From IMG/VR virus record IMGVR_UViG_3300010267_000001, positions 1 through 59,759 of that record: 59,759 bases of DNA; one strand, 5' to 3'. This document shows, in pieces, positions 17,561-54,100 of the stretch. Source of the DNA: a virus. Its lineage: Duplodnaviria > Caudoviricetes. Positions within the stretch are counted from its first letter, which is position 1. Every line of letters starts with the position of its first letter. A program made the translations under genes and the position numbers. The notes beneath the pieces are model-generated. The model saw only the letters and a list, made by a program, of their open reading frames with translations. It ran no database searches and was not told the origin of the DNA.

Positions 17561-17586
17561 TGGTTTTATATAAAGGAGTATTAAAT

Positions 17587-20698: not shown

Positions 20699-20850
20699 TT
20701 TCAAAAAAACACTCAAATATTGTTACAAAATTTTGCATTTTTTCACCCGTTTTAACCAACTTTTACTGAATAATTACTGTACTAATTACTGTACTTGTCC
20801 TTGATTTATATTGCAATATGTGATAATATTTCTACGAGGTGATTTCATAC

Positions 20851-36317: not shown

Positions 36318-36328
36318 TTTATCACCTC

Positions 36329-37600: not shown

Positions 37601-37620
37601 AATAATACCTCCCTTAAATT

Positions 37621-40600
37621 TTAAGTATATTGTTCTATAAGCATATTAAGTTTTCTAAACATTTCATTAGGATCGTTTGCTTGAATATTTAAATTTTCAA
37701 AATGATAATGATTTTCAGTTGGTTTAGCAACTGAATTGTTATTAGAAAAGAATGGTATCTTAATTTCAGGTATATTAATTTTAGGCATTATTATATCTGT
37801 TACACTATAAGGCAAATTCTTTACAAAATCGTAAAGTTTTTTACCTTGCTCAGCGTTAAAAACAGTTTCAACTGCATTAGGTTTACCATGCAGTATAGCA
37901 AAACCAGTATAATCATTTACTCCACCAGTATCATACTTCAATACATCCCATTTACCAGTAGCAGAATCAAAAACAGGTTTTTTACCCGTAGATTTTGCGA
38001 TTTCTTCTGCAAGTTTTTTATTCTCTTCTTCAAGTTTTTTCTTTTCTTCATCATTAGCAAAATGCCAATTTTGACTGTTTTTAACCATTTGTTCTAATTT
38101 ACTATCAACACTTGCATTCCCCGTAGATGTATAACCAGTAGCACCTTTTGAACTACTGCTACTGCTACCGCCACCACTACTACCACTAGACTTACTAGTT
38201 CTATCACTACTATATACATTTCCAGTAGGTACTTCTGTTTTTATACTTGACATCAATTTATTATAATCTTTTACGAATTTATCTAATAAGTCTAGCCTTT
38301 GTTCATATGATTCTTCTTCAATTCCAGCGAGACTTTGTACTAATTTACTATAAGAAGTAACCTGAAATTTTTGTTTATCTATCTCTTCCCGATGAGCATT
38401 AGTAAAATCTTGAAGCTTTTTAATTTTTTCGTCATATCGTTTTTCTTCTTCTTTTAATTCGTCTTGAATAGATTTTATTTGATCTTTTAATTTTTGAATT
38501 TCATTTTCACGCCTATTTTCTGCTTCCCAACGTGAATAATCTTCTTCCATTTCTTTAAGTTTATCGGTTTCTTCTTTAAGTTTTTTAGGGTCTGCAACAT
38601 ATACCCATTTACCATCTTGTAATATACGAACATTTCTTTGTTTTTGAATGTTTTCAACTAATTCACGTTGTTTTGCTAATTCCGAAAGTCGTTTTTCACG
38701 TTCTTCTTGTTCTTTTAATTCTTCATTTTTTCTCTCTAATCTTTCTATTTCAGCATTAAGGCTATCAATTTCCATTCTTGCTCTTTCTTGAGCAGATTTT
38801 TTAAGTTCTTCATATTTTTCAATTTGCTTATCAATAGTATAAAGAAGATACTCTTGATAAGACTCAATTAAATCCTCTGCATATTTTTTCTGTTCTTTTC
38901 TTAAATTTTCAATTGAATCTGTTGTAGATGCAATTTCTTTATCTAATCGTATATATTGATTGCCTGCTTGTCTATTAGCGTCATTAAGAGAAAGCGTTTC
39001 TTTAATTAGCTCTTCCGTCTCTTTTCTAAGTTTATTGGTTGCTTCAGCATCTTTGCCTTTTAATTCGTTTAAATGTTCCATATTTCTTATAACTAATTCA
39101 TTAGTATTCCTATCATAAAAGATGTCAAATCCTAAATCTTGAAGCTTACCAATATTCTTCTGAATAGTGTCACGCCTAGCTTCTGCAAGTTGATGCAATA
39201 TCTTTTGTTCTTCTTTATATAAATCAATACGTTTAGATAAAAGATTAATTTTATCTTTATCTTCTGCGATATCAGTTAAAGCTTGATTACGTTCAATTTC
39301 ATCGTTAACTTTAGCAAGCGCATCTTCAAGTTGCTGGAATTGATTGACTTCGGCTTCGTAGATTTCTGTAGATTTAGAAGAACTTGATTTAGAAGAAGAG
39401 ACGCCAAAATTTGGGTCTGAAAGTAATTCTAATAATTTCTTACTTCGTTCTTTTAATTCTCCGATTTTTAATATAGTATCATTTGCTAATTTTTGTTCAT
39501 TAAACGATTGTTTAATTTTATCATATTCTTCTTTTGACCATTCGGTTATTTTGTCTCCAACAGTTATTTTGTTAGTCAAGTCGTCAAATTTTATATCTTC
39601 AAATGCAGTTTCGCCAAAGACTCGCTTAAACCCAAGTTTTGATGCTTCTTGTTGTGCGGATTTTAAATCTTCAATTGCAGCAATTTCTATGCCATAAGCA
39701 TTTACTCTAGCAGAAACATTATCTAAAGTTGCTTTTGTTGAATTAATTTGATTTTCTATAGTAGTACGTGCTTCTTCAATCTTTGCTTTTCGTAAAATTT
39801 CTATAGCATCTTTTTCTATCGTCCAACCATCTGCTGTTTTGTGAATTGCATCTGTTAGTTCTGGATATTTTTGAATTAAATCTAAAACTGTTTCTGCATT
39901 TAAAGATTGCCCATTTTGAACATCATCAAGAACCTGATTGAGTGTTTTTAAATCAGACTGGACAGAATTAATAACATTATTTAATTGTTTAAGGTTATAT
40001 TCATATTCTTGAAGCGACTCTGAAGTTTTATCTACAGTATGTTGTAATAATTTTTCATATCCTTCATATTTTGAAATAATATCTGTTGCATTATCATATT
40101 CTTCATAAAGTTCTTCAAGAATTTTTTTTCTTACATTATAGACTATATTAGATTTATCAACGGCATCTCGAACCGATGATTCTATTGATTTTATGGCCGC
40201 TTCAATATTTTCAAATTGCATACCGCCTAGGCCACCAAAAGATATATTATAAGGACTTTCTAATATCTTTTTTGCTTCTCTGTAGGCTCTCTCATTTAAT
40301 GTTATAAACCTTTCTGCTTCTTCTTTTGTTAATTGTCGCATTAAATCAATGTTAGTTTCTAAAGAACCATTTTGCAAATCTATAGCCTGAGCTGTTTCAC
40401 CAAATCTGGTCTTTAATTGCCTTTCTATTTCAATAAGTTTTGCTTTTTCGTCTCTTGTTAATTCAGTTTTATTAGCTAATCCTTCATATTCTTTTTGCCA
40501 CTGTTTTAATTGCTCTATATTGCTTTGTGCTTTATTATATGATTCATCTACTGAATTTTTATATTCTTCTAATGAAACATTTAAAGCATTAAAGGCTTTT

Positions 40601-43056
40601 ACCAGACCATAAATAGCACCAGCGATAACCAGAGGGGCAAATGTAGTGAAAGCAAGACTTAATGTTTTTACACTTAAAGCAGCACCGTTGGCAGCAATAG
40701 CAATTCCATTTTCAGCAGTAACTATTAACCCTAATTTTTGTAATACAATTGGTGCAATATTCGTAGCAAAAGTTTGAAAAGATTTATTAAATAAAAACAA
40801 AGCTCCAAATGCAGTTGATAAAGCTACTGGCAACAAACCTATTTTATCTACTAAATTTAATATAACTGTGCCTAAATTAATTATTGTTTTTATAGTATCA
40901 GAAGAAAGAGTATGTTGCCACATTTCTTCCCATGTTGCAGTAAATTTATCAAGTGCAGCACGTGTACTTTCTTGATATATAGCAAACTTTTGTTCTGCTG
41001 TACCTGCTGAATTTAAGGCAATTTCATAATTTTTTAACGAATCATTATAATTGTCGAGCAGGGTTATAAGCCTGTTACGCTGGTATGTTCCTGCTAATGT
41101 AGTAGCGACATATGCTTGCTCATTCTTCGTCAAGCTATTCCATTTAGCACCAAGCTCATCTAATACTTCTGCTATTGGTCTTAATTGACCTTGTGCATCA
41201 ACAGCAGTAATTCCTACTGCTTGTAACGCTTTAGTTACGTCATTTATTTGAGTAGCATCTTCTTCATTAAATCCCTTAGCTTTTATTTGTTCGTATCTAC
41301 TAATTATAGTTTTTAAGCTATTACCTATAGACGAAGCAGATTCTCTAGTTATACTTGAAATGGTTGCGATCCACGATGCTGCTTTTTCCAAACTTACGCC
41401 ACTGTTCTCTGCCGTACTTGCAACTTTTTGTAAAGCTTCACCAATCTCTTCTGCTCCACTAGCTGTAGCATCTCCCAAATATGCAAAAATATCTACAATT
41501 TTTCGTACACTTTCACCCGTTGCATTAGCTGTAGCAGTTATTATTTTATTACTTTCTTGAAGAGAAATACCTGATATTTTAGCATATTGAATAATTGCTT
41601 TCATTCGTTCTTCTACTTGACTATCATTCAAACCTTGCCTAAATAAATCTGCTGCTGTAGATGCTATTTCTCTTGTTGTTACACTCATTTCTTTGGCAAG
41701 TTTATTATACGATAAGGCAAGATTATTTACTTCTTGCTGTGTTTTATTTGTTACTATACGAATTTCATTGAGGGAATTGTCAAGTTCAGTTATATATGAT
41801 ATGCCTTCTTTTATTTGTCTTAATGTACCAAAAAACAATGTTCCACCAGTAGCCCATTGAGCCATACGTTTCCATGCGGTTTGTATAGCCTTACTCCATG
41901 TCAAAGTGTCAATCATTGCATTACGAGAAGCGTGAGAATATTTATAAATACTTCCTGTTGCTTTATCTATATAAGCTGTTAAATCTACAAATTCATTTCC
42001 TTTTTGTAATTTCTGTGTTAATTTCAAATATTCTTCCGTTTCTTGAACATAATTTAAGCCAGTAATTCTATATCCTTGTAGTAATGGAGTAGATAGTGCG
42101 TCTTTATAATTTTTTAAAGTAACTACAGTAGCATTTAGGTTTTCTCTCAATTTAATTACTTGCCCAGTGATATTTTCAAATTGTTTAAAATTGAAACCCT
42201 TTTCAGCAGTTATTTCAATATCACGATATGCTTTATAAAGAGACCACAAAGTATTTATTTGTTTATCAATATTCCTTTTTTGTTCTTCAGTCAAATTTGA
42301 TTGAGATTTTCTTAACTTTTCTATTGTGGACAATATAAAATTATATTCTCTATTTAAAATACTAAGATTAGTTGGTTCTTTTACGCCTCTTGAAGATGTG
42401 AATGTGTCACGTATATTTTTTAGTCTAGTCTCAAATTTCTGTAATATATTTAAATTTCTTTGTAAGACATCTCCAGCGTTCTTATCAATCAGATTAGCAC
42501 CAGAAAATACAAAACCTTCTTTTGTGCTGTCTCCAACTTTGATTTTAGCCATGTTAAATCTAAGTTGTTCAATAGTACCATCTAATTTTTTTATTTCTGC
42601 TTCAAATCCAACAATTTGGTTTTTGGCATTTTTTAGAAAATTAACATTTACATCGCCCAAGTCTTTAAATTGATTTTTAACCCTGTTTACTATATCTGTT
42701 GTTGAAATGAAAAATTGTCTACCTTCAGCTTCAAGTTGTTCTATATCAAATACTTTTATTTTATTCTCTGATTTTGATTTTTCTGATATTTTTGTTGCTG
42801 TTTCGGTTACTATCTTTTCTGCGTCTTTTACGCTCTGTTTATCAACATCAAACTGCAAGTTAAGTTTTATGTTTTTTGCTAATTTATCAACATCGCTTTT
42901 AAATTTAGCAATAACGTTTTCATCAAAATCAATTCTTGGTCTGAGATTTATTTTTATTTTTTTTGCAACGGAATCTAATTGCGTTTGTAAATCTTCTTGT
43001 TCAACATTTAATATGGCATTTATAAGTATCCCCAGTTTATCATCCATTTTGAACAT
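37621..43056 (-). CDS. tail tape measure protein (TP901-like core)
   Basis: 1811 aa helical; ELDNSLNEIRIVT...FRQGL...SIGNSLKTIISR...QRNRLITLL; YDTGG near C-terminus; start probably 43047. Confidence 0.93.
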   Translation of the reverse strand: MFKMDDKLGILINAILNVEQEDLQTQLDSVAKKIKINLRPRIDFDENVIAKFKSDVDKLAKNIKLNLQFDVDKQSVKDAEKIVTETATKISEKSKSENKIKVFDIEQLEAEGRQFFISTTDIVNRVKNQFKDLGDVNVNFLKNAKNQIVGFEAEIKKLDGTIEQLRFNMAKIKVGDSTKEGFVFSGANLIDKNAGDVLQRNLNILQKFETRLKNIRDTFTSSRGVKEPTNLSILNREYNFILSTIEKLRKSQSNLTEEQKRNIDKQINTLWSLYKAYRDIEITAEKGFNFKQFENITGQVIKLRENLNATVVTLKNYKDALSTPLLQGYRITGLNYVQETEEYLKLTQKLQKGNEFVDLTAYIDKATGSIYKYSHASRNAMIDTLTWSKAIQTAWKRMAQWATGGTLFFGTLRQIKEGISYITELDNSLNEIRIVTNKTQQEVNNLALSYNKLAKEMSVTTREIASTAADLFRQGLNDSQVEERMKAIIQYAKISGISLQESNKIITATANATGESVRKIVDIFAYLGDATASGAEEIGEALQKVASTAENSGVSLEKAASWIATISSITRESASSIGNSLKTIISRYEQIKAKGFNEEDATQINDVTKALQAVGITAVDAQGQLRPIAEVLDELGAKWNSLTKNEQAYVATTLAGTYQRNRLITLLDNYNDSLKNYEIALNSAGTAEQKFAIYQESTRAALDKFTATWEEMWQHTLSSDTIKTIINLGTVILNLVDKIGLLPVALSTAFGALFLFNKSFQTFATNIAPIVLQKLGLIVTAENGIAIAANGAALSVKTLSLAFTTFAPLVIAGAIYGLVKAFNALNVSLEEYKNSVDESYNKAQSNIEQLKQWQKEYEGLANKTELTRDEKAKLIEIERQLKTRFGETAQAIDLQNGSLETNIDLMRQLTKEEAERFITLNERAYREAKKILESPYNISFGGLGGMQFENIEAAIKSIESSVRDAVDKSNIVYNVRKKILEELYEEYDNATDIISKYEGYEKLLQHTVDKTSESLQEYEYNLKQLNNVINSVQSDLKTLNQVLDDVQNGQSLNAETVLDLIQKYPELTDAIHKTADGWTIEKDAIEILRKAKIEEARTTIENQINSTKATLDNVSARVNAYGIEIAAIEDLKSAQQEASKLGFKRVFGETAFEDIKFDDLTNKITVGDKITEWSKEEYDKIKQSFNEQKLANDTILKIGELKERSKKLLELLSDPNFGVSSSKSSSSKSTEIYEAEVNQFQQLEDALAKVNDEIERNQALTDIAEDKDKINLLSKRIDLYKEEQKILHQLAEARRDTIQKNIGKLQDLGFDIFYDRNTNELVIRNMEHLNELKGKDAEATNKLRKETEELIKETLSLNDANRQAGNQYIRLDKEIASTTDSIENLRKEQKKYAEDLIESYQEYLLYTIDKQIEKYEELKKSAQERARMEIDSLNAEIERLERKNEELKEQEEREKRLSELAKQRELVENIQKQRNVRILQDGKWVYVADPKKLKEETDKLKEMEEDYSRWEAENRRENEIQKLKDQIKSIQDELKEEEKRYDEKIKKLQDFTNAHREEIDKQKFQVTSYSKLVQSLAGIEEESYEQRLDLLDKFVKDYNKLMSSIKTEVPTGNVYSSDRTSKSSGSSGGGSSSSSSKGATGYTSTGNASVDSKLEQMVKNSQNWHFANDEEKKKLEEENKKLAEEIAKSTGKKPVFDSATGKWDVLKYDTGGVNDYTGFAILHGKPNAVETVFNAEQGKKLYDFVKNLPYSVTDIIMPKINIPEIKIPFFSNNNSVAKPTENHYHFENLNIQANDPNEMFRKLNMLIEQYT

Positions 43057-43081
43057 CTCCCTTCATTCCGTATTTGTAAGG

Positions 43082-43103
43082 GGAGGGGAGAAAAACTCCC
43101 CTC
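43082..43103 (-). terminator. GC-rich hairpin upstream of tape measure
   Basis: GAGGGGAG-AAAAA-CTCCCCTC. Confidence 0.55.
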
Positions 43104-43133
43104 ACTCGAAGATATAAAAATACAAGCATAAAA

Positions 43134-43156
43134 AAAGGGAGTAAATACTCCCTTTA
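43134..43156. terminator. terminator after lipoprotein moron
   Basis: AAAAGGGAGT-AAAT-ACTCCCTTT with U-run on the minus strand. Confidence 0.7.
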
Positions 43157-43182
43157 TAACGATATATATATTAATTATTCAA

Positions 43183-43671
43183 TTATTCAACCGATATATC
43201 ATAATCAACTTCCATTAACTCAATTAAATCTTGTAATGTTCGATAAAGCATTTTTCCTTTAGAATTACGTATATCAATTAATTTATCCGTATCTATATCT
43301 GTATCATATAAACAACTATTAATATAATTTGTTAATATACGATAAAATGAAACCATTACAGCTAAAATTTCTTGTTCTTTTTCATTTAATCCATAACCAT
43401 CTATTATTTTTTCATCTTCTTCTTCAAGTCCATAAAGTATATTAAAAAAATTATCTGATGTATTCTTTATTATCAATTCTTTTATCTCATTAGTATATTT
43501 ACGATTTTTATTTTTTAATGCTTTTTCAGTTAATTTTAAGCATTCTATCATGTCATTATAAAACTTCTCATTGTCAATTCCTTCAGGCACTTTTTTACCG
43601 CATGATGTCAAAAGAGTTACACAAAATACCAATATTAAAAAAATAGATACAGTCTGTTTCAAATGTTTCAC
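43183..43671 (-). CDS. lipoprotein moron (possible superinfection exclusion)
   Basis: Signal peptide with lipobox LLTSC-G; own terminator; start probably TTG 43662. Confidence 0.75.
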   Translation of the reverse strand: MKHLKQTVSIFLILVFCVTLLTSCGKKVPEGIDNEKFYNDMIECLKLTEKALKNKNRKYTNEIKELIIKNTSDNFFNILYGLEEEDEKIIDGYGLNEKEQEILAVMVSFYRILTNYINSCLYDTDIDTDKLIDIRNSKGKMLYRTLQDLIELMEVDYDISVE

Positions 43672-43703
43672 CTCTTTTTGGCTATAATTATCCTTTTTTT
43701 ATA

Positions 43704-43850
43704 TTATACCAAAAAAACAAAAAATCTATATACTATAATTAAAAAGAATTCAGATATTATACCTAGAAAAATATAATTACTATCACCAAAATATGTATTA
43801 ATCATAAAACATAAAACAAATATTAATAATATAGCAACATTTTTTCTCAT
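43704..43850 (-). CDS. 48-aa two-helix membrane peptide (not in ORF track)
   Basis: AAGAGGT RBS; MRKNVAILLIFVLCFMINTYFGDSNYIFLGIISEFFLIIVYRFFVFLV*. Confidence 0.55.
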   Translation of the reverse strand: MRKNVAILLIFVLCFMINTYFGDSNYIFLGIISEFFLIIVYRFFVFLV

Positions 43851-43895
43851 ACAAAAACCTCTTCTTTAGTTATAATACTTTATTGTTATATAACT

Positions 43896-44033
43896 TTATG
43901 AAAAAATTTTATCAAAAAAATATAAAATTATAAAAATAACAACACAGATACATATCCAAAGAAAATAGCCTTTCCAATCATATTTCTTTTTACGATATCC
44001 TTTAATATAATCATTAGCATATTTATATAGCAT
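43896..44033 (-). CDS. 45-aa single-helix membrane peptide
   Basis: AGAGGTG RBS before ATG 44033; MLYKYANDYIKGYRKKKYDWKGYFLWICICVVIFIILYFFDKIFS. Confidence 0.7.
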   Translation of the reverse strand: MLYKYANDYIKGYRKKKYDWKGYFLWICICVVIFIILYFFDKIFS

Positions 44034-44061
44034 TTGACACCTCTGAAATATTGATATATTA

Positions 44062-44090
44062 ATTATATACCAAAATTTCACAATTGTCAA
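44062..44090 (-). promoter_or_regulatory. consensus sigma-A promoter for the moron cluster
   Basis: TTGACA-17-TATAAT on the minus strand. Confidence 0.85.
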
Positions 44091-44227
44091 ACAATATAGA
44101 GTAGGGGGGGGGCAACCTCCCCTTAATGATAAAATAAGAATTTGATTTAGATAAGTTTGGCAGGCGAATAGCCTGCCATATATTGTTGGCTCACAGTATT
44201 GCGCCAAAATAGGCTCGTGAGAACTGT

Positions 44228-45247
44228 TTAATCTATAAATGCTTCATCAGCATCGTCTGTATCTTCACGTATGACATATATCTTAGTAGTTTCAGATGAT
44301 TCGTGTCCCAACAATTTCCTTGCAGTCTCTAAATCTTTACCTGAATGTACTACAAGATTAGTTGCACGAGATTCCCTAAAGAGGTGCGGATGCACCCTTC
44401 GTCCGACGATTTCTGTAAACAAGGTACTGCACCATTGATTGAATGTAGTAGGGGAGACTTGATTAATTTTACCGGCATATTTCGCAATAAACATATACGG
44501 ACAATCATCTTCTCCACGAACTTCTAGCCATTTCTTTAATGCTTCCATTGCTTCTTCATTAAATTCTAATTTCCTAATTTTACCAATTTTCCCCTTGCCT
44601 TTACATCTAATCTCGTGAGTTTTATATTTTTTAACTTCAACTTCCACTTCTCTACCATCAGAATCTTTCATCTTAACTGTTTTAATAATAGGTTCATAAT
44701 TCACGACCTCTTTGAGTAATAACCTTGCTTCTTCACGTCTACAACCTGTTACATACGAAAATTTAAGATAAGCTAATTTCTGCCATTCACCACGTCTTTC
44801 TAATTCATCGCATAAATATCTATATTCATCAGGTGTAAGCGGTTCTTTTTTATGTACAAAACCAGTTGTGGGTACTTTAATAGATTTATTTATATAATTC
44901 CTAAAGGTAGGATATTCATCTTCATAATAAACCATTATATAATTATTCAAACTACTCACAGCAGACCTTTTTAATTTTATAGCTGCTTCTGACAAACCAT
45001 TGTTCACTAACCAGTTTTGAAACCTTAAATAATCTCTGCTTTTTATATCAATTAATTTTTTATCATTACAATTTTGTTTTATCCAATAAGCATACATTCT
45101 CAAAGCAGATTTATATTGTATATAGCTTTTTGGACTTAAATGTGCTGAACTCTCTAAAAATTCATTTATTATATTACGATTAAATTCATTGCATTGTAAC
45201 CACATTTCTTCTGTTACTTCTATAGATTTATCAGCAATTTTACCCAT
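44228..45247 (-). CDS. second tyrosine recombinase (XerC/D-like, no arm-binding domain) in the tail operon
   Basis: VTGCRREE, KGKG, HPHLFRESRAT, LLGHESSETTKIY: R, H-x-x-R, H and Y intact. Confidence 0.92.
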   Translation of the reverse strand: MGKIADKSIEVTEEMWLQCNEFNRNIINEFLESSAHLSPKSYIQYKSALRMYAYWIKQNCNDKKLIDIKSRDYLRFQNWLVNNGLSEAAIKLKRSAVSSLNNYIMVYYEDEYPTFRNYINKSIKVPTTGFVHKKEPLTPDEYRYLCDELERRGEWQKLAYLKFSYVTGCRREEARLLLKEVVNYEPIIKTVKMKDSDGREVEVEVKKYKTHEIRCKGKGKIGKIRKLEFNEEAMEALKKWLEVRGEDDCPYMFIAKYAGKINQVSPTTFNQWCSTLFTEIVGRRVHPHLFRESRATNLVVHSGKDLETARKLLGHESSETTKIYVIREDTDDADEAFID

Positions 45248-45309
45248 TGTTTCTCACCACCTTTATAAGAAAATATCTATGTCAACAGAAGTTATTTTCA
45301 AAATCAAAT

Positions 45310-45338
45310 AGGGTAGAGGACATTAACTCTACCCATTT
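45310..45338 (-). terminator. hairpin upstream of recombinase
   Basis: GGGTAGAG-GACATTAA-CTCTACCC. Confidence 0.55.
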
Positions 45339-45358
45339 ATATCAAATCACTATTTTAT

Positions 45359-45823
45359 TTAAATCACAGCACCTTTACCAAACCTTTTTTCTAATGCTTT
45401 TTTCATAAATTCCTTCAGTTTTCCTTTTTTTAAATCTTTTCTTGTTTCTTTAATAAATGGTCTAGGATATGGTTGCTTTTGATAAATCTTACTATCCTCC
45501 CATGTATAGCCGACACCGTGTTCAACTATTGGTGTTATATATCTGTCTGGGTCTGAAGGCGTAGCATATCCATTATCTCTTGTTATATTACTTATTTTTA
45601 TACCGTTTTCTATTTCTTCAACTAAATAATTTTCATCATCTAATAAACCGCCATCTTCCTTACGTCTGACATATTGTGTAGGCTTATATGCATCATAAAC
45701 GTCTATTTTCACATGCTCTTTCTCTAATTCTATTGTTTTTTCTGCAACATCTGTTTTTAAACTATCCATAATTTGTTTTTGCAAATATTTTTCCAATTCT
45801 TTTACACTTTTAAAAGTTGGCAT
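45359..45823 (-). CDS. putative tail completion protein (HK97 gp10-like)
   Basis: DVYDAYKPTQYVRR, IVEHG, PRPFIKET. Confidence 0.65.
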   Translation of the reverse strand: MPTFKSVKELEKYLQKQIMDSLKTDVAEKTIELEKEHVKIDVYDAYKPTQYVRRKEDGGLLDDENYLVEEIENGIKISNITRDNGYATPSDPDRYITPIVEHGVGYTWEDSKIYQKQPYPRPFIKETRKDLKKGKLKEFMKKALEKRFGKGAVI

Positions 45824-45912
45824 AAAATCATCTCCAAAAAATAAGGTAGGGGAGAATCGACATACTAATACAATCGCATTTGTTTTTTGTAACCCCTTTT
45901 GTTTGCTATTTA

Positions 45913-46461
45913 TTACATGACAGAAGGTTGCCTGTTTAGCGTTTCAACTAACTGCTTAATCATGGGCATCTTATCTAAATTGAGTTTTTGTGCTTCTTTT
46001 AAGATAGATTTTATAGCTTTTGGATTTGTGTTCTTTTCAACTACGTTTATAAAGTTAGTTAAATTTCTATTTATTACACCAGCCAAAGAATTATAAGTAT
46101 CAATTTCATTTCTTATCATATAATACGAATGTTCAGAAATAAAATCACGTTCCTCTTGATTCATGTTTTCTTTTATAAAATCAATAATCTTATATTCACA
46201 CGCTTCATCATAATGTTCATCAATATCAACATTACTATAAAAAGACGTGACCATTAAATCAAATGCAATTGCATAACTGATACTATCTTTTATTTTCATA
46301 CCATTTTGTTCAACAATACTGTTTTTTGCAATTTCTTCACACATTAATCTTTTAGTTGAAATAGGTAAGTAATCTTTTATTTGAATCCCATCAAAAGCAT
46401 TGTCATTACCGTTTTTTATTTTTTCAATAATATCAATTACATTAATTCTATTTTCACTCAT
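45913..46461 (-). CDS. conserved virion-operon protein (possible tail assembly chaperone)
   Basis: IKDYLPISTK motif; position in tail module. Confidence 0.5.
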   Translation of the reverse strand: MSENRINVIDIIEKIKNGNDNAFDGIQIKDYLPISTKRLMCEEIAKNSIVEQNGMKIKDSISYAIAFDLMVTSFYSNVDIDEHYDEACEYKIIDFIKENMNQEERDFISEHSYYMIRNEIDTYNSLAGVINRNLTNFINVVEKNTNPKAIKSILKEAQKLNLDKMPMIKQLVETLNRQPSVM

Positions 46462-46511
46462 AATAAAATCTCCTTTTTACTTTAATATTTTGTTTTACAT
46501 GAAACATGATA

Positions 46512-46955
46512 TTAATAATGAATATAAATTTCAGTTCTTGGGCTATCCTTGTCATATCCACACTTTAAAGTCAAACTTTCTAAATGCTCAGAGTCATCGT
46601 CAACAAGCAATCCGCTGGCAACGAAACCATCTAAAAAAAACTTAGGCACAGTATTATCTACATCTTTGCGGATTTTGGTTTTGAAGTATGACACAAACGT
46701 CATAGAACATTTCTCAATACGTTTGTTTGTTAATCCATTTTCTTCTACAAACCAGACGATGAACTCTTTATATTTTTGTTTTAAAGTATTCATTTGGGGA
46801 CGTTTCATTATCATCCATTTATTTATTGATGGGTGAGTGGGAGACTCAATAGGCTTTTTCTTACGCTTTGGATATTGTTTAAAATAATATTTATGATATT
46901 TATCTACTATGTCATTATCTATGACAAGTTTTAATACATTAGATATGAAAATCAC
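46512..46955 (-). CDS. RusA-like Holliday junction resolvase
   Basis: HPSINKW, RKDVDNTVPKFFLDG...LVDDD, PRTEI. Confidence 0.8.
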   Translation of the reverse strand: MIFISNVLKLVIDNDIVDKYHKYYFKQYPKRKKKPIESPTHPSINKWMIMKRPQMNTLKQKYKEFIVWFVEENGLTNKRIEKCSMTFVSYFKTKIRKDVDNTVPKFFLDGFVASGLLVDDDSEHLESLTLKCGYDKDSPRTEIYIHY

Positions 46956-47077
46956 CTCATTTTTCGATTTTACCTAAATTTGAAATCCTTGATTTTACTG
47001 CGTTTGCAGACTTGAAAAAACCAATGAAATGCTAATTTGATGCCCGACTTCCTGAATAAAAATAAAAACACAAACAA

Positions 47078-47119
47078 AAGAGCAATGGAGAAGTTATTAG
47101 CTTCAAATCATTGCTCTTT
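47078..47119 (-). terminator. terminator closing the inserted beta-helix module
   Basis: AAGAGCAATG...CATTGCTCTT inverted repeat with U-rich tail on the minus strand. Confidence 0.6.
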
Positions 47120-47330
47120 CTTATATGAACGGTTTGACCCGTTATAGTAGTTTGTGTAGATTTTAGAGAATTATTTTGAAAGTTGTTAGTTCGATAATTG
47201 TTCCAATGTCGAGGTAACTACGCTGGTATCTGTGGTGTGGTGTGATGATAATCATTTCCTCAGCTGTCGGTGACGGTAGTCGTGCAGATGTTTCTCCATT
47301 ATCCGCCTCCACCACATCACCATCGTATCC

Positions 47331-47465
47331 TTATGTGTCATACTCTTGCCCTGTAATCTCTTCGTATTCTTCAGCCGTAATAACTTTTCCCACGACATTG
47401 TAAACTCGCTCTTTACTCCATAACCCTTTGTCGTAGTACATCTTCACCCTGTCAAACCAACTCAT
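47331..47465 (-). CDS. XkdX family protein (44 aa, not in ORF track)
   Basis: MSWFDRVKMYYDKGLWSKERVYNVVGKVITAEEYEEITGQEY. Confidence 0.85.
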   Translation of the reverse strand: MSWFDRVKMYYDKGLWSKERVYNVVGKVITAEEYEEITGQEYDT

Positions 47466-47818
47466 ATTTCCACCCCCGTCATAATGGCAAGGTAATCAAT
47501 ATCGGCCCTTAAACGAAGGTTATCCGTCAATTCCTGCAGCTGTTTCCTTTGTTCATAGGCTTCACAGCCAGCGTTGAACACTTCAAGGGCTTTATCGTAG
47601 GAGTCAAACTCAAGCCCTTCAAACCATTCATTTCCTGCCTGGGTGATAGATTCAGTAGAGAATGGTATGCCTCTTTCGGTGAGCTTTTGTTCTATTTCAT
47701 TCTTGTGTTCTTCCGAGATACACCGTTCTTCCATTTCAATCGTTTCTTCACCTTGAGTTTCCTGCCAGGTCACTATATATCGAACCAATTCAACCTTATT
47801 ACCCAAAAGGCGAAACAT
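47462..47818 (-). CDS. fibre-associated protein preceding XkdX
   Basis: C-terminal LRADIDYLAIMTGVEI. Confidence 0.7.
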   Translation of the reverse strand: MFRLLGNKVELVRYIVTWQETQGEETIEMEERCISEEHKNEIEQKLTERGIPFSTESITQAGNEWFEGLEFDSYDKALEVFNAGCEAYEQRKQLQELTDNLRLRADIDYLAIMTGVEI

Positions 47819-47831
47819 TATATCACCTCAC

Positions 47832-49001
47832 TTAGTTATATTTGTTATTTACACTCGTATTGCTCGTCCCGCCCCCGATGACGACATTTTTGCCCATGCA
47901 GTTGTTTGAGGAAATGAGGTTATAGCTGTTGCTAGAACCTGATAGATGTATTGTATATTGACTTGAGGTGTAATCAGAGGATTGCCCTGTTCCACGTATG
48001 CAAGTGTTGCCTGTTATCGTGTTATTACTAGATGAAGATAGGAAGATACCGCTGTTGCTGTTGTTGTTGCAAGTGTTGCCTGTTACCGTGTTGTAGCTAC
48101 TAGATGAAAGTAGGCAGATGCCGTAGTTGTTGTTGTTGCAAGTGTTGCCTGTTACCGTGTTGTAGCTACTAGATGAAAGTAGGTAGATGCCATAGTTGTT
48201 GTTGTTGTTGCAAGTATTGCCTGTTACTGTGTTGTCGCTAGATGAATATTGATAGATGCCGAAGCTGTTATTGTTGCAAGTATTGCCTGTTACTGTGTTG
48301 TCGCTAGATGAATCTAGGCGAATGCCGGTGCTGTTGTTGTTGCAAGTATTGCCTGTTACCGTATTGTTGCTAGATGAATATTGATAGATGCCGTAGTTGT
48401 TGTTGTTACAAGTATTGCCTGTTACCGTGCTGTCGCTAGATGAATATAGGTAGATGCCATAGTTATAACTTGCAGTATATGTTGCCTTGTTCCCGTCAAT
48501 TTGCAAACCTTGTATTTTGCAACCGCTTTTTTCATTTAAGGTTATTAAGCCCTTCGCAGTAGAACCGCTATCCGCATCAGTCGAATTATACATTCTCTTT
48601 AAGATTGTAGTATTGCCGTTACCCCTTAAAGACACGTTATCCTTTGGAATATTGATACTCGCCGTAATATTATAAGTTCCATCAAGGATGACTACTTCCC
48701 CGCCAGTTGCGGGCAAATCATTTAGTGCTTGTATAATTTCTTCTTGGTCATTTGTTCCATCGCAAAGATAATCACAATCTTTTGCTGTCCAACCAGATGT
48801 TGATGTACCGATAACAAATCTCACTGTTTTTGCGTGTTGCGTACCATCTTCCAAATGTGTATTAAGGTCATCTATTATGTTCGTAATTTCTGCCAATGTA
48901 CTACTAACTGTATCTAAATTTATATTATTATTTACTGTAATTTTATCAGTTTTATCCTTTGCAGATTGACCAATCGCCCTAGCTATAATATCTGTTGCCA
49001 T
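47832..49001 (-). CDS. right-handed parallel beta-helix (pectin-lyase-like/NosD repeat) virion protein
   Basis: DYLCDGTNDQEEI...GGEVVILDGTY; about 7 repeats of GIYLxSSSxNTVTGNTCNNN. Confidence 0.85.
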   Translation of the reverse strand: MATDIIARAIGQSAKDKTDKITVNNNINLDTVSSTLAEITNIIDDLNTHLEDGTQHAKTVRFVIGTSTSGWTAKDCDYLCDGTNDQEEIIQALNDLPATGGEVVILDGTYNITASINIPKDNVSLRGNGNTTILKRMYNSTDADSGSTAKGLITLNEKSGCKIQGLQIDGNKATYTASYNYGIYLYSSSDSTVTGNTCNNNNYGIYQYSSSNNTVTGNTCNNNSTGIRLDSSSDNTVTGNTCNNNSFGIYQYSSSDNTVTGNTCNNNNNYGIYLLSSSSYNTVTGNTCNNNNYGICLLSSSSYNTVTGNTCNNNSNSGIFLSSSSNNTITGNTCIRGTGQSSDYTSSQYTIHLSGSSNSYNLISSNNCMGKNVVIGGGTSNTSVNNKYN

Positions 49002-49339
49002 TAGTCAGTCACCGTACCTTTCGCCGTTACCGCACCTGCACCTATAGCTGATAATCTTAATCTTACTCTCACATATCCTTCTAATGGTAAAGAGTACTTT
49101 CCATTAGCAGTAATATTAGGTGACATAGCATAAGTGTTAAGATTAACTACAGAAATTGCCGTATAATCATCTGTATCATTTGCTTTTGCTTCAACTACAA
49201 TATTAAAATTTTCCGCATTACCTGTAACTGCTATAGTAGCTGTACGCATTCTCGCTCCTACTAGTAATTCATTCCCATTTGAAACAGCGTTAGCATTGTC
49301 TAAAAATGGAAAGATAAGTTGTCTCACATTGTTTCCCAT
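49001..49339 (-). CDS. small beta-sandwich virion protein
   Basis: AAAGGAG RBS; beta-rich, RVRLRLSAI. Confidence 0.65.
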   Translation of the reverse strand: MGNNVRQLIFPFLDNANAVSNGNELLVGARMRTATIAVTGNAENFNIVVEAKANDTDDYTAISVVNLNTYAMSPNITANGKYSLPLEGYVRVRLRLSAIGAGAVTAKGTVTD

Positions 49340-49351
49340 GTTATTACTCCT

Positions 49352-49552
49352 TTATTTATAATTGAAATTTGAAATATATATTAAAGTATTCATTTGTGGA
49401 CGTTTCATAATAAACCATTTGTTTATACTAGGGTGAATAGGAGAAGGAATAGGTTCTTTAGTTCTTTTAGGATATTTTTTGAAATAATAAGAATTGTATT
49501 TTTGAAGTGTATCGTTATCTATTACTAATTTTATTACATTAATATAAATCAC
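49352..49552 (-). pseudogene. N-terminal fragment of a second RusA-like gene
   Basis: Aligns with 46512-46955 up to KRPQMNTL, then 9 unrelated codons and a stop. Confidence 0.8.
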
Positions 49553-49569
49553 CTTCTAAAAAATAAGAT

Positions 49570-49600
49570 AGGGTAGGGAATAAATATTCACCTACCCATA
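49570..49600 (-). terminator. hairpin/terminator
   Basis: GGGTAGG...CCTACCC inverted repeat. Confidence 0.55.
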
Positions 49601-49670
49601 ATATTATATTAATATAATTTGTTTCTATCAAAGTTATGCAGGTTGTACCATTTGTTTATTATATAAAATT

Positions 49671-49730
49671 AGGGAAGAAGTGTTCGGATGCACTTATTGT
49701 CAGTTGGGTGTTCAGTCCAACCTATCCCTT
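49671..49730 (-). ncRNA. candidate structured RNA (three-way junction) behind its own promoter
   Basis: AGGGA/UCCCU, GUUGG/CCAAC and AAGUG/CACUU stems; starts about 8 nt after a -10 box. Confidence 0.45.
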
Positions 49731-49737
49731 TAATTAT

Positions 49738-49766
49738 ATTATAATATTATATTATTATTTTGTCAA
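49738..49766 (-). promoter_or_regulatory. consensus sigma-A promoter
   Basis: TTGACA-AAATAATAATATAATAT-TATAAT on the minus strand. Confidence 0.85.
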
Positions 49767-49768
49767 TA

Positions 49769-50497
49769 TTAAGGTGTTGTTCTAGGTACAACTACATATT
49801 TACCATAAGAAGTAGAACCTATTGGCGTTTCACATATGAAGTTTATTGTATCTTGCTGGTTCTCTCCTGCGCTATATGCAGCAGTCAAATTACCATCTGG
49901 TCTTGCCTTATCAAAAATCCAATACAAATCAGCAACAACTTTTTCTGTATCTGGGTCATAACATATAGTATGTAATTGCACTTTATGGGGTTTTGGAAAT
50001 TCTTCAGCATTCAAATCAAGTACACTAGCAGTAGGTTGAGCTTCTTCGTATATTACCGTATAAAATTGCCCTGCCTGACCTCCTGTAATAGTAACTTTTC
50101 CAGCAGTAAAACTACCTGTTAATTCCTTGCCATTTTTATCAAGAACTGTTACTTCACCAACAGGAGTACCATCAATGGTAACTTCCACTGAACCTGCGTT
50201 ATCTACAGCCTGTTTTGTTTCTGACCTCAAAACATTTATTGCTTCGTCACTAAACAATCCACCACTTTGAAGAGCATAAATATCATCATTATGCAACGTG
50301 GTAGTGACTTCAAAATTTATATCTTTACTGTTATTTATAGTTGTTACACGTTTGTTTCCAATACCACCACGTATAGGAGTTGAATCTACTGTTTGATTTA
50401 CATTATTTGTTGAAGTCAATCCAATAAAATATGTTTTATCGTTTATTTCATCAATGGCAATTACTTCACAAACGTCATGTACAACAACGTTATTCAT
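49769..50497 (-). CDS. major tail (tube) protein
   Basis: Acidic, beta-rich; PIRGGIGNKR; position after tail terminator genes. Confidence 0.75.
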   Translation of the reverse strand: MNNVVVHDVCEVIAIDEINDKTYFIGLTSTNNVNQTVDSTPIRGGIGNKRVTTINNSKDINFEVTTTLHNDDIYALQSGGLFSDEAINVLRSETKQAVDNAGSVEVTIDGTPVGEVTVLDKNGKELTGSFTAGKVTITGGQAGQFYTVIYEEAQPTASVLDLNAEEFPKPHKVQLHTICYDPDTEKVVADLYWIFDKARPDGNLTAAYSAGENQQDTINFICETPIGSTSYGKYVVVPRTTP

Positions 50498-50514
50498 AAA
50501 TTAATTCCTCCTTA

Positions 50515-51219
50515 TTAATTATTAAATAAAGATTTAGATTTTTTCTCAAAATCTTTTATATTTGTTTTCTTTTCTTTTAACTCTGTCAAATCTATTGCCT
50601 TATACCACGATTCAATTTTTATATCATTAGAAACAGTAGCAAATAATGTAGTTGTATTATAATTTTTAAATTGACCTAATCTATAAAAAAGAGCATACAT
50701 TTCATATATATACAAGTCATTTGGCTTCGTACCAGAACCCAACCAAACACTTGTATATACAGCTTCAAAGTCAATATTATCATTGTTTTTCTTTTGAAAA
50801 AACTTTTTAAAAGCATTAAATTTTTCAATTTCTGGATTAGAACTTGGTTTCTCATAGTTTAAACAATTCATTTTTTTTATTAAATCAAGATAATATTGCA
50901 ACTCTTTATCATCTTGCACTAAATCAAAAACATCTTCATCAAAACACAATTTAAATAAATCTTTGAAACTTTGATATAAATTATAATTTTCGTAGTTAAA
51001 AAATTTAATTATCTCTAATAAAGATAATTTTTCAAAATATTCTTTATATTCTGGCTTAATGAATTTCATTATATCTTTTTTTTCTAAATATATAAGTTGT
51101 ATATATGGCAATAATGTAAGATATTCTTTAACTTTAAAAAACCTTATTTTGCCTATTCTTGTTTCAATAGGTTCGCAAAGTATATAAAATTCTCTTATAT
51201 CTTGCATATTATCTTCCAC
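50515..51219 (-). CDS. conserved virion-operon protein (tail assembly)
   Basis: Position in structural operon, SPbeta-like synteny. Confidence 0.55.
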   Translation of the reverse strand: MEDNMQDIREFYILCEPIETRIGKIRFFKVKEYLTLLPYIQLIYLEKKDIMKFIKPEYKEYFEKLSLLEIIKFFNYENYNLYQSFKDLFKLCFDEDVFDLVQDDKELQYYLDLIKKMNCLNYEKPSSNPEIEKFNAFKKFFQKKNNDNIDFEAVYTSVWLGSGTKPNDLYIYEMYALFYRLGQFKNYNTTTLFATVSNDIKIESWYKAIDLTELKEKKTNIKDFEKKSKSLFNN

Positions 51220-51712
51220 CCTTCAAAGTGGAACTGTTAACATTTATCCATAAAGTCATGCCAGAATAATCTTTGTTGAGTTTATATATTTTAAATCGTT
51301 CAATTTCACAAAGTCCAATACCCATGACATGTTTTTGGTCGATATCCTTAGCAATTTCATCTGCTATACGAAAAGGACGTATTTGACCTAATCCACTAAG
51401 CAACCAATATTGATAAGGTACAACAATATCAATAAGAAATGTTATATCACTTAAAGGCTGATTTCTTAAATTACCTTCATATGGATTTATGAATAGAATT
51501 ACTTTTTGTTCTTCTGAATCAAGTATATTATTATCAAATACATTTAATATTATATGACCTGTTTCTAATAAATCTACATCAACGTTAGGTTGGCTAATAG
51601 GGTCATTCACTAAATAGAAAATATATTTCTTTAAATTTTCATTTGACAATAATACTTCCAGCAGTTTTATAAGGTTATTTTCTATATGTCTAAATTTCTG
51701 ACTCCATTCCAT
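51209..51712 (-). CDS. tail terminator/completion protein
   Basis: IDIVVP..W...IRPFRIADEI motif; position. Confidence 0.6.
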   Translation of the reverse strand: MEWSQKFRHIENNLIKLLEVLLSNENLKKYIFYLVNDPISQPNVDVDLLETGHIILNVFDNNILDSEEQKVILFINPYEGNLRNQPLSDITFLIDIVVPYQYWLLSGLGQIRPFRIADEIAKDIDQKHVMGIGLCEIERFKIYKLNKDYSGMTLWINVNSSTLKGGR

Positions 51713-51724
51713 TAGCCCACCTCC

Positions 51725-52921
51725 TTAAAATATATTTTTAATCTGTATTCTTAAAAATTGCGGTTCAACATTGCCTTCTGTATCCTTGCACCACAACTTC
51801 ACATATCCCAATGTGTTACCAGTAGTTACTACACAAGTATTAGCAACTGAATCTTGTTCTATAATTGTTGCTAAAGTAGTTGGATTCCCCAAATCATCTG
51901 TTAACCAAAATTCAGACAACATACTTACAGGTATTCCGTTATCAGTAAATTTTGCAGTATATGTAGCTGTTCTACCTTTAACTATAGAAGTATTACCTGA
52001 TATAATCACCATGTAATTGTGTTGTGGTTCATCAATAAACTCAACAATAATACTATTTTTTATATTTTCATTATCTTTTAATGATACTGTAAATGTAACT
52101 ACACCTGTGCTTAATATATTAACTACACCGTTTTCATCAATTGTTGCAATTGTTTCATCACTTGATGTGTAAACAAGCGGTGGGGTAGGGGAAAGGACTT
52201 TGTCTCCATCTAACACTACACAATTAATCACAAAATTATCACTTACACTAACTTGAATATTATTTCCATTAAGTATATTAATATTATACTTTGGCAAATC
52301 TTGTTTTTCTGCTGTCCATTCACACTTGAGAATTATAAGCCCTGGATTAATAACGTCCGAAATGTCTATAACTTTATAATGATTAATACCTATTTTATAA
52401 ACTTCATCACGCTTAATTAGTTCAGTAATTTCGTTATGTGGTACTCTAACTATAATATCTGTACTAGGCTGAATATTAAACCTTGTTTCATCTACGCCCA
52501 TGCTATATAAGCGTGTAACATCTTCAATAATGCAAGGTACTTTATATAAAATACCGTTTTTATATACATTTAAATCATAATAAGACTTTGTTACAGTACA
52601 AGACTTAGAAACTGTAGTATATGTTACATCAGTACATATCCATTTTGCACCGTCAAATTCAAATATATCTCCAACTTTTACTTCATAATCAGGTGTTCTA
52701 AAAATTATTTTTTGATAATTATCATTTCGTCTTGACAGTGTTTCAGTATTAAATTTACCAACAACACGTGCTGTTATAGGATTGCCATTATGTAATACTT
52801 CTTTTATAGTTGTCGTGTTTTCATATTCCGAATTTACTAATTCCTGAAATTCATCTTTGTAAATTTCTGAAGGAGTTGATTTTGTTACAGATAAATAAGC
52901 ATTATAAGATTCATACGCCAT
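51725..52921 (-). CDS. head closure protein with C-terminal Ig-like domains
   Basis: VKVGDIFEFDGAKWIC; YTSSDETIATIDENG Big_2-like. Confidence 0.7.
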   Translation of the reverse strand: MAYESYNAYLSVTKSTPSEIYKDEFQELVNSEYENTTTIKEVLHNGNPITARVVGKFNTETLSRRNDNYQKIIFRTPDYEVKVGDIFEFDGAKWICTDVTYTTVSKSCTVTKSYYDLNVYKNGILYKVPCIIEDVTRLYSMGVDETRFNIQPSTDIIVRVPHNEITELIKRDEVYKIGINHYKVIDISDVINPGLIILKCEWTAEKQDLPKYNINILNGNNIQVSVSDNFVINCVVLDGDKVLSPTPPLVYTSSDETIATIDENGVVNILSTGVVTFTVSLKDNENIKNSIIVEFIDEPQHNYMVIISGNTSIVKGRTATYTAKFTDNGIPVSMLSEFWLTDDLGNPTTLATIIEQDSVANTCVVTTGNTLGYVKLWCKDTEGNVEPQFLRIQIKNIF

Positions 52922-52925
52922 ACAA

Positions 52926-53372
52926 TCAACTCCTTCTTTCTAATTTAGACCAATCAAAATTGTTATATGAATATTGTACAATTTGTTTGTCAACCATTTC
53001 TTTCATTGTGGTTAACAATTCTCTTTTCTCTTTAAGATTATTAGCTTGACTATACGTCTTAAAATCGGTATCTTGAAGAAAGTTTCTAAGACTTAATATA
53101 TCATTAACTTCTTTAGTCAACCACTCAACTATCATAAGATTAGAAAGTATAACTTTTTCATCAGTTGACAAAGTTTGGTTAAAAACTTTATTTGTATCAT
53201 CTCTATCTTCTAAATCTGTTTTACATTTTCTAAAATTTGCTATAGCTTTAATCAAAAAAGACATTAAATAATTTTCCATATCTTCTACGGATTTTTCATA
53301 CAGCCTATTTATCCTATAATCCTGAATAGAAGTAAGAAATAAATCAAATACTTCAGAATAGGGTGTTGCCAT
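52926..53372 (-). CDS. head-tail adaptor protein
   Basis: MATPYSEVFDLFL..I.DY...DFKTYSQAN; position after capsid. Confidence 0.7.
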   Translation of the reverse strand: MATPYSEVFDLFLTSIQDYRINRLYEKSVEDMENYLMSFLIKAIANFRKCKTDLEDRDDTNKVFNQTLSTDEKVILSNLMIVEWLTKEVNDILSLRNFLQDTDFKTYSQANNLKEKRELLTTMKEMVDKQIVQYSYNNFDWSKLERRS

Positions 53373-53384
53373 ATTACCACCCCT

Positions 53385-54029: not shown

Positions 54030-54062
54030 TCAACAATTCCACCTTTCTTCAATAATAATTAA

Positions 54063-54094
54063 ATAGGGAAGTGGAATACACCACTTCCCATTAT
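54063..54094 (-). terminator. terminator after major capsid gene
   Basis: GGGAAGTGG-AATACA-CCACTTCCC. Confidence 0.7.
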
Positions 54095-54100
54095 TTATAA

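Follow-up and report, generated by a model that had tools for sequence, protein, structure and literature searches.

The recombinase gene and its surroundings

The DNA analysed here, referred to below as the window, is the whole of the IMG/VR virus record IMGVR_UViG_3300010267_000001 (59,759 bp, 30% G+C, completeness estimate 42%), which carries early and accessory genes on the plus strand from 1 to 22 kb and structural genes on the minus strand in the remainder. The subject of this work is a tyrosine recombinase gene in the tail module of this phage, together with the two 18-bp dyads between which it lies. The gene (44228-45247, minus strand), defined by its open reading frame (ORF), Pfam and alignments, encodes a protein of 339 amino acids (aa) of the YomM / Tyrovirus-gp50 family. 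A preliminary description of the locus, made from the sequence, had stated that the phage also has an integrase of its own, and this proved correct, an ordinary phage integrase of 404 aa being encoded by a separate gene at 20839-22053 on the plus strand.

On the gene strand, the order begins with a 154-aa gene (45359-45823, minus strand), which is found at the same position in two relatives, G002 (38% identical) and G010, and whose stop codon (45359-45361) is abutted by the upstream dyad (28 bp, 45336-45363, minus strand; 18-bp core 45341-45358, ATCAAATCACTATTTTAT). A terminator-like G+C-rich hairpin with a T-rich run (45311-45334, minus strand) and the ribosome-binding site follow, and the start codon of the recombinase lies 93 bp from the dyad. 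Behind the recombinase stop codon, a stretch of 81 bp, which is absent from the relative L004 and holds a second G+C-rich hairpin, GGCAGGC..GCCTGCC (44158-44178, no strand assigned), leads to the downstream dyad (28 bp, 44124-44151, minus strand; 18-bp core 44129-44146, ATAAAATAAGAATTTGAT); the distances first given, about 95 and 80 bp, were thus nearly exact. Then come a G-rich hairpin and a moron (43134-44090) inserted between the recombinase and the tape-measure gene, which consists of a perfect sigma-A-type promoter that drives it (TTGACA-17-TATAAT, 44062-44090, minus strand), a small membrane ORF, a lipoprotein gene (43183-43671; 162 aa, signal sequence ...LLTSCGKK) and a terminator (43134-43155). 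The tape-measure protein gene, recognised from its ORF and from synteny (37621-43056, minus strand, 1811 aa), is next. Because of this local anatomy, with hairpins, dyads, promoter and terminator around the gene, the recombinase is a unit of its own set apart beside a moron, as it is in SPbeta and G002, where other morons occupy the same place. A run of nine G within 44103-44113 is two bases shorter in the contigs of two public sequencing runs, X4 and X6.

The product was originally described as a recombinase with intact catalytic residues and no arm-binding domain, and both Pfam and the alignments bear this out. The Phage_integrase domain (PF00589) covers residues 137-325 (E 1.6e-19; 70.8 bits against a cut-off of 27.1) and a SAM-like core-binding domain (PF02899) covers residues 29-103. 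Because nothing except 28 residues precedes the core-binding domain, there is no arm-binding domain, and the protein does not qualify as a lambda-type integrase. R170, E173, the hairpin lysine, H288, R291, H315 and Y324 were placed by alignment to XerA (4a8e, 5hxy), XerD (1a0p) and homologues; all but the lysine are invariant in 53 homologues of 59-81% identity, and the lysine, K223, is invariant in a wider alignment of eight sequences. With the tyrosine-recombinase set R-(E/D)-K-H-R-H/W-Y complete, the ORF is predicted to encode a catalytically competent Xer/Cre-type tyrosine recombinase. Its acidic C-terminal tail, ...EDTDDADEAFID, resembles a docking peptide; the tail residues (326-339) end in ...D-x-x-x-AF(I/V), in which D332, A336 and F337 are invariant in the 53 homologues. 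Scores against the NCBIfam models stayed below the cut-offs for XerC (86 against 335 bits), XerD (62 against 330) and XerS (43 against 267), so that no equivalog-level Xer match was obtained, and the integron integrase model TIGR02249 matched residues 282-325 only (29 bits against a cut-off of 265). Neither of the two marks of an MrpR-like repressor, lost catalytic residues and similarity to the MrpR structure 8A0A, was found: the catalytic residues are intact, and the search of the PDB gave no match to 8A0A at E <= 1e-3.

The gene had also been called an orphan, which does not hold: tblastn found a homologue in 161 phage records, 153 of them covering at least 80% of the query, and 1355 proteins matched at E <= 1e-10, some of them from Clostridium and Coprococcus genomes. 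Over 92-99% of the query, identity to the window recombinase is 49-50% in Tsamsa-like Bacillus phages (gp50), 46% in the Lactococcus 949 group and 33% in SPbeta (YomM), and weaker matches occur in Staphylococcus 6ec/SEP9-like, Enterococcus, Lactobacillus plantarum and Geobacillus phages. The gene lies shortly before the tape-measure gene in Tsamsa, SPbeta and phage 949 and likewise holds the tail-module slot in the window and in G002; in 6ec it is placed after the endolysin gene instead. As judged by sequence, the window gene is therefore a new member of the published YomM / Tyrovirus-gp50 family, resident before the tape-measure gene of large Firmicute siphoviruses. The passages of PMC9703825 on this family place Tyrovirus gp50 (Thrax1-5; gp227 in Tsamsa) between the neck and tape-measure genes, describe as a putative attP an 11-6-11 inverted repeat that immediately follows the stop codon of gp50, take the location of gp50 to argue against a role in lysogeny, and state that the role of the tail-module recombinase is unknown and needs further work. 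A statement that SPbeta-like phages carry an integrase-like gene of no established function near the tape-measure gene agrees with these results, and literature searches on yomM in Bacillus subtilis, on follow-up work on Tyroviruses and on the 949-group recombinase found no functional study. SPbeta YomM (L039, SPBc2, 2962-3963) has a lysine in place of the second catalytic arginine (HLFK for HLFR), and its catalytic competence may differ from that of the window protein.

The dyad family and its distribution

Exact matches to ATCAAAT-N4-ATTTTAT occur twice in the window, and these are the two flanking dyads. Read on the gene strand, the upstream dyad is TTTAAATAAAA TAGTGA TTTGATATAAA and the downstream dyad is TCTAAATCAAA TTCTTA TTTTATCATTA, with arms AATCAAA / TTTTATC. 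The upstream dyad is exactly kept in L003 and in L071 (the locus of G010), and the DNA homology of both to the window begins at it, in L003 exactly so. The downstream dyad with its TTCTTA centre stands directly after the stop codon in L004, whose protein is 93% identical; in L071, where the recombinase is 28% identical, it is found 50 bp past the stop codon.

Similar sites are numerous in the window. Allowing at most one mismatch, ATAAAAT-N4-ATTTTAT was found at 13 sites, where 0.82 were expected and 100 shuffles gave 5 at most, and the 28-bp form TTTAAATAAAA-N6-TTTTATTTAAA, at 18 or more of 22 positions, at 15 sites against 0.47 in 30 Markov shuffles. When all 6-mer dyads with spacers of 4-10 bp were counted de novo, ATAAAA-N6-TTTTAT ranked first in the window (10 against 0.4), and it also ranked first in G002, a distantly related phage of 130 kb (16 against 1.27). 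The dyads form a genuine family, described by AATAAAA-N6-TTTTATT, whose arms reach up to 11 bp. Across records, counts of AATAAAA-N6-TTTTATT with at most one mismatch (reversed-pattern control in brackets) were 9 (1) for the window, 34 (6) for G002, 10 (1) for G010, 4 (1) for G011 (31 kb), 3 (1) for G007 (complete, 204 kb), 3 (1) for G008, 0 (0) for G009 and 1 (1) for G015 (136 kb). G011 has a dyad after its recombinase and extra perfect dyads; G007 and G015 have none after the gene and no dyad family. An apparent G007 family of its own, ATGAAA-N6-TTTCAT (5 against 0.21 expected), was rejected as an artefact, most copies overlapping minus-strand ATG-AAA start codons. In IMG/VR, the perfect 28-bp consensus was found once each in 16 contigs; of the four that were checked, three had only distant integrases, one of these being G002, later shown to be a true dyad-rich relative. 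A variant element, AATGAAA-N6-TTTGATT, occurs at 899-940, 1279-1320, 15808-15835, 16462-16489 and 16699-16740; its G positions are not self-complementary, and it adjoins ribosome-binding sites or perfect promoters at 15838 and 16430.

The recurrence of dyads after homologous genes was scored with a consensus derived from the window and G002 only. We used 78 of 80 viral loci (without L110 and L186) and 20 of 32 genome loci (without partial or 37%-identical matches), and after removal of the close relative L109 and dereplication on the first 40 nt after the stop codon, 69 loci were left; the 132 nt that follow the stop codon of each other predicted gene of these loci (n=422) served as the control. 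Within 132 nt after the stop codon, a score of at least 13 of 14 was reached after 5/69 recombinase genes against 2/422 other genes (Fisher p = 8e-4); for at least 12 the figures were 8/69 and 15/422 (p = 0.009), and for at least 11 they were 16/69 and 59/422 (p = 0.04). The five best loci, L113, L118, L090 (Bacillus sp.), L093 (Lysinibacillus sp.) and L094 (Brevibacillus gelatini), encode recombinases with 45-61% identity to that of the window, and the site in L094, AATCAAA TTCTAA TTTTATT, is nearly the downstream site of the window. A dyad of the same type thus recurs just after the recombinase stop codon in independent lineages. Furthermore, in a large clade the sequence ATAAA(A/T)-CTCCAA-TTTCAT lies immediately 3' of the stop codon; a pattern set up post hoc for this type matched 10/69 against 97/6000, a comparison that is descriptive only. 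The region upstream of the homologues is not enriched in dyads (3/64 at a score of at least 12, none at 13).

Most dyads lie far from the recombinase gene, in one-directional arrays of small early genes. The 28-bp forms of the early region (4652-17574, plus strand) start at 4652, 6216, 7363, 8420, 10414, 11206, 12212 and 17547, and every one of them lies in a gap from a stop codon to the ribosome-binding site that follows, with the central 6 bp differing from site to site. Typically the upstream stop codon is in the left arm or at most 8 bp from it, and the ribosome-binding site begins 2-10 nt past the right arm. All nine sites counted in the window and 28 of the 34 in G002 are intergenic, in genomes that are about 88-91% coding. 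When all dyads were compared, the central 6 bp were never common to two sites, so that the dyads cannot recombine with each other. The early genes of the window encode several DNA methyltransferases, a radical-SAM protein, a PAPS-reductase-like protein, a Mom-like protein and YopX, and the DNA-modification genes are dense at 4.6-16.5 kb, mostly with dyads between them; three paralogous phrog_67 methyltransferases are encoded at 5446-6213, 10469-11203 and 11261-12211, and an MT-A70 methyltransferase at 15838-16443. A 129-aa ORF with an RF-1 (peptidyl-tRNA hydrolase) domain (E 1.5e-15) lies at 17799-18188. Searches with the radical-SAM and methyltransferase genes of the window gave no close relatives and no dyads in the matches, and the cassette borders of the early region were therefore not comparable.

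The palindromic form of the dyads could reflect either a folded nucleic acid or a symmetric protein site, and covariation between the arms was examined in 39 sites aligned by direction of transcription. Twelve of these are from the window, namely eight of the nine sites of the intergenic count (46462 was dropped) plus 11210, 17551, 44128 and 45340, and 27 are from the 34 of G002, the six inside ORFs and 81749 being left out. Over 11 arm pairs, standard pairing was found in 80.9% of cells against 80.6% after shuffling, a value reached by 211 of 500 shuffles, and compensatory changes in the arms were no commoner than in shuffles. The RNA folding energy averaged -2.2 kcal/mol and was 0.0 for both dyads that flank the recombinase. 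Since the arms deviate independently, the dyads look, from their sequences, like symmetric protein-binding sites and not like selected hairpins, and the interpretation as an RNA hairpin or terminator was rejected. A sigma-A promoter inside the dyads was rejected as well, because there was no acceptable hexamer pair and the region did not surpass shuffles (132 against 119.7 expected), and no promoter fits between a dyad and the next start codon. The late-region dyads 26784, 44128 and 45340 are each followed by a separate G+C-rich hairpin.

A proposed gene-adjacent core site and other explanations

The most economical explanation of these results is that the gene and the dyad next to it form a dif-like core-site module, like xerS-difSL or xerH-difH, that acts between copies of one site, and we give this explanation about an even chance (roughly 0.5). 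The downstream dyad (44124-44151) is most likely the cognate core site of the recombinase. We infer binding, cleavage positions and biological role as follows: two recombinase monomers would bind the inverted arms of the downstream dyad and cut 6 bp apart, gene and dyad would form a self-contained module, and the reaction partners would be two copies of this one site, carried by replicated, concatemeric or co-infecting genomes. Two genome copies would be needed because the centre TTCTTA was seen once in the 59.8-kb window, which represents ~42% of the genome. The outcome would be multimer resolution, cyclisation or exchange rather than integration or rearrangement within one genome, and the upstream dyad and about 12 others, with the same arms and other centres, would at most be bound and not recombined with each other. 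That the recombinase binds all of the dyads can be put forward only tentatively, as somewhat doubtful, and that it recombines different dyads with each other is very unlikely.

Several observations weigh against this explanation. The placement of most dyads, in the early region between a stop codon and a ribosome-binding site, suits a regulatory element, and AATAAAA is a motif of low complexity for a genome with 30% G+C. Under the strict test, no more than 5-8 of the 69 loci have a dyad behind the gene, and the 69 loci, dereplicated on their downstream sequence alone, are not independent in phylogeny; many homologues, including the 949 group, L003, L006 and L007, run straight into the next gene. 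The need for multimer resolution in a phage with a lytic cycle, by a gene in the late operon, is unexplained. Furthermore, contigs of four public runs (X4, X6, X7 and X19), in which rare forms are dropped, show no inversion or deletion joint at 44129 or 45341 over the part examined (36000-55000).

The relatives of the window pose a more direct difficulty. G010 is 86-88% identical to the window in DNA over the head genes and has the same two dyads with identical centres in the same slot, yet the recombinase between them is only 28% identical, whereas a cognate pair of recombinase and site would be expected to co-vary. DNA homology between the two is limited to the flanks (45245-45361, 84%; 44129-44173, 87%; 43909-44107, 90%), with none in the recombinase coding sequences, and from this comparison the coding sequence has evidently been exchanged between conserved, dyad-bearing flanks. 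In G002, which has 34 dyads, the syntenic recombinase shows only 25% identity over 97 residues and its gene is not followed by a dyad, the nearest one (centre GAGTGA, against TAGTGA in the window) being upstream of its 154-aa gene. Conversely, the recombinases of G007, G008 and G009 are 60-62% identical to that of the window, yet these phages lack the dyad family. Taken together, G010, G002, G007, G008 and G009 show that possession of the dyad family does not go with similarity of the recombinase.

The two flanking dyads were also considered as endpoints of an inversion or a deletion; this was rejected, as their centres, placed in the same orientation, read TAGTGA and TAAGAA and no such joint was seen in the contigs. 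One weak joint, 43912 to 45590, was discounted, being present in one contig with 20 letters on one side and taken at 85% likeness. Clear joints were found elsewhere, at 161-nt direct repeats (46781-46941 and 49381-49541, 75% identical) and as changes of repeat number inside a beta-helix gene. This ORF (47832-49001) has NNN..TGNTC parallel beta-helix-like repeats, with seven tandem copies of 66-72 nt at 47999-48473 whose number varies among contigs of several runs, and one X7 contig joins 46797 to 49398, with loss of 2.6 kb including the whole ORF, apparently a naturally occurring deletion of a tail-fibre-like gene. The window stretch is present in bioreactor, digester and manure metagenomes, and contigs from RNA libraries cover 44437-45241, a coverage that is no proof of transcription.

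The preliminary description had proposed the recombinase as the best candidate enzyme for the dyad sites and had named the co-occurrence of gene and dyad across phage genomes as a check. What survives of this proposal is the 11-6-11 geometry, the independent deviation of the arms and the recurrence of a dyad after the gene. A partnership with all dyads is countered because recombinase lineages and dyads are distributed in an uncoupled manner, with dyad-rich G002 and G010 on one side and G007-G009 on the other, and the differing centres, the early placement and the failure of the upstream dyad to recur also count against it. Multimer resolution at a single adjacent site, originally an alternative, fits the data at least as well as the proposal itself.

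The main rival to the gene-adjacent core site treats the dyads as a regulatory or punctuation element that occurs between cistrons throughout the genome, similar to SPBRE of SPbeta and bound by another phage or host protein, which could be an operator-binding repressor like that of SPBRE. The recombinase would then be an exchangeable, separately regulated cassette of the late operon and would act elsewhere or on a site not yet recognised. We regard this as rather unlikely, although much of the above is what it would lead one to expect: the sites are intergenic, between stop codon and ribosome-binding site, the recombinases in the same slot of three dyad-rich phages are 22-28% identical to each other, and phages with 60%-identical recombinases have no dyads. 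SPBRE has a similar location, before ribosome-binding sites or promoters of early genes, and the passages of PMC10516654 describe its binding by MrpR. The homology of the window to L003 and G010 also starts or stops at dyads, as it would for exchangeable cassettes, but these breakpoints are not independent proof of recombination at the dyads, because gene borders are where selection would place breakpoints anyway. On the other hand, an element served by another factor leaves unexplained the 16-fold excess of dyads after the recombinase over other stop codons, in independent lineages, as well as the differently armed 11-6-11 repeat that the part of PMC9703825 on gp50 places at the same position in Tyroviruses. 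Moreover, no candidate binding protein was identified as common to G000, G002 and G010 and absent from G007, the three dyad-rich records being incomplete. A few early proteins are common to G002 and G010 and absent from G007, one of them with a DGFHR motif. In the early region of G002 (L052), this 431-aa protein (10978-12273) adjoins a second recombinase-like ORF (9788-10876, 362 aa) with a lysine at the second arginine position; the protein and its neighbour are both common to G010 and absent from G007.

It is less probable, and indeed improbable, that the recombinase is mainly a recombinase-fold regulator like MrpR/YopR, acting on all dyads with the same arms, for example in a late shut-off of the early cassettes, with catalysis secondary. 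SPbeta provides the precedent of a recombinase-fold repressor on a repeated intergenic element, as far as the MrpR passages of PMC10516654 go, the arms are the same at the gene-adjacent and early sites, the differing centres are irrelevant to binding alone, and YomM has a lysine where the second catalytic arginine would be. The catalytic residues, which MrpR has lost according to the same source, are invariant in the 53 homologues of the window protein, however; the protein has no match to 8A0A at E <= 1e-3, and phages devoid of the dyad family also retain this recombinase family.

A further alternative, which we consider highly unlikely, is that the dyads are addressed recombination sites, with shared arms and a centre of 6 bp particular to each position, for in-register exchange of cassettes between co-infecting or sister genomes. 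Since strand exchange needs identical centres, crossover would occur only between the same position on two genomes, and the differing centres, the placement at cassette borders, the breakpoints at dyads and the swap to a 28%-identical allele would all be accounted for. Finally, RNA or single-stranded-DNA hairpins (terminators, processing sites or attC-like folded sites), suggested by palindromes at the 3' ends of genes and by the separate G+C-rich hairpins after the late dyads, can be dismissed as extremely improbable, given the lack of covariation, the folding energies and the ribosome-binding site, not a T-run, that follows the dyads.

Hundreds of large Firmicute siphoviruses, strictly lytic dairy phages and SPbeta-like prophages among them, have kept a tail-module tyrosine recombinase. 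The gene family is known, and the dyads, which look like its targets, provide a concrete candidate substrate: a 28-bp dif-like dyad with defined arms and centre that adjoins the gene and recurs in other lineages, which makes the role of the recombinase addressable by an ordinary binding and recombination assay. If the recombinase occupies the early dyads with the same arms, a gene of the late structural operon would be tied to early-gene control or cassette exchange. Otherwise, the dyads themselves remain as an intercistronic element of protein-binding type, newly described and common to at least three distantly related anaerobic-digester phages. Addressed exchange, if true, would amount to a programmed engine of phage mosaicism that neither deletes nor inverts segments of a single genome.

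Comparison with known systems

Within its own family, the window recombinase resembles Tyrovirus gp50 in sequence (49-50% identity), in slot and in the inverted repeat with a 6-bp centre after the stop codon. The repeat after Tsamsa gp227 has the centre TTCTTA, as the downstream dyad of the window has, with arms ACATCTTAATC in place of AATCAAA / AATAAAA, and it follows the stop codon directly, as in L004, whereas the window site lies 81 bp past it. The window has a second dyad with the same arms upstream of the gene and about a dozen elsewhere; the passages of PMC9703825 on gp50 report no such family for Tyroviruses, and the 17-kb Tsamsa locus contains no dyad of the window type. SPbeta YomM is 33% identical over 99% of the length and is also a tail-module gene with morons between it and the tape-measure gene, but it differs by the lysine at the second catalytic arginine position and has no dyad after the gene.

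The other SPbeta system is that of MrpR. The passages of PMC10516654 on MrpR (YopR) describe it as a recombinase-fold repressor that has lost its catalytic residues and binds SPBRE, a repeated intergenic element of SPbeta. SPBRE (about CAAATACAAAAAATATGTAT) is found just before ribosome-binding sites or promoters of SPbeta early genes, so that in both systems an A+T-rich, imperfect palindrome is repeated between early genes and goes with a recombinase-fold protein. The dyad is not SPBRE, as its sequence differs and SPBRE has a 5-7-5 layout, and unlike MrpR the window recombinase keeps its catalytic residues and has no sequence match to 8A0A. Repeated elements at each boundary between small accessory genes, in one-directional arrays, are also known from the promoter-early stem-loop (PeSL) cassettes of T4-type phages and from integron attC arrays. 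A further likeness to these lies in the homology breakpoints between relatives, which fall at dyads; the window sites differ in being 28 bp rather than at least 57 bp long, in leaving no room for a promoter and in showing no hairpin covariation, and the integron-integrase score of the protein is below its cut-off.

In Cre-loxP of phage P1, a simple tyrosine recombinase encoded by the phage acts at one site with palindromic arms near its gene and serves cyclisation and dimer resolution, not integration. The PDB search gave no match of the window recombinase to Cre at E <= 1e-3, and the spacer is 6 bp in the window dyads and 8 bp in loxP. The single-recombinase Xer systems XerS-difSL and XerH-difH differ from the window in that the window gene is borne by a phage, in a late operon, and is accompanied by many sites with the same arms and different centres. 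Nevertheless, going by the parts of PMC5357621 on these systems, in which a site adjoining the gene is the hallmark of single-recombinase Xer systems, E. coli dif has an 11-6-11 layout and the arms of difSL and difH end in AAAA or start with TTTT, they share with the window a single recombinase without an arm-binding domain, an adjacent site and inner arms formed by A/T tracts.

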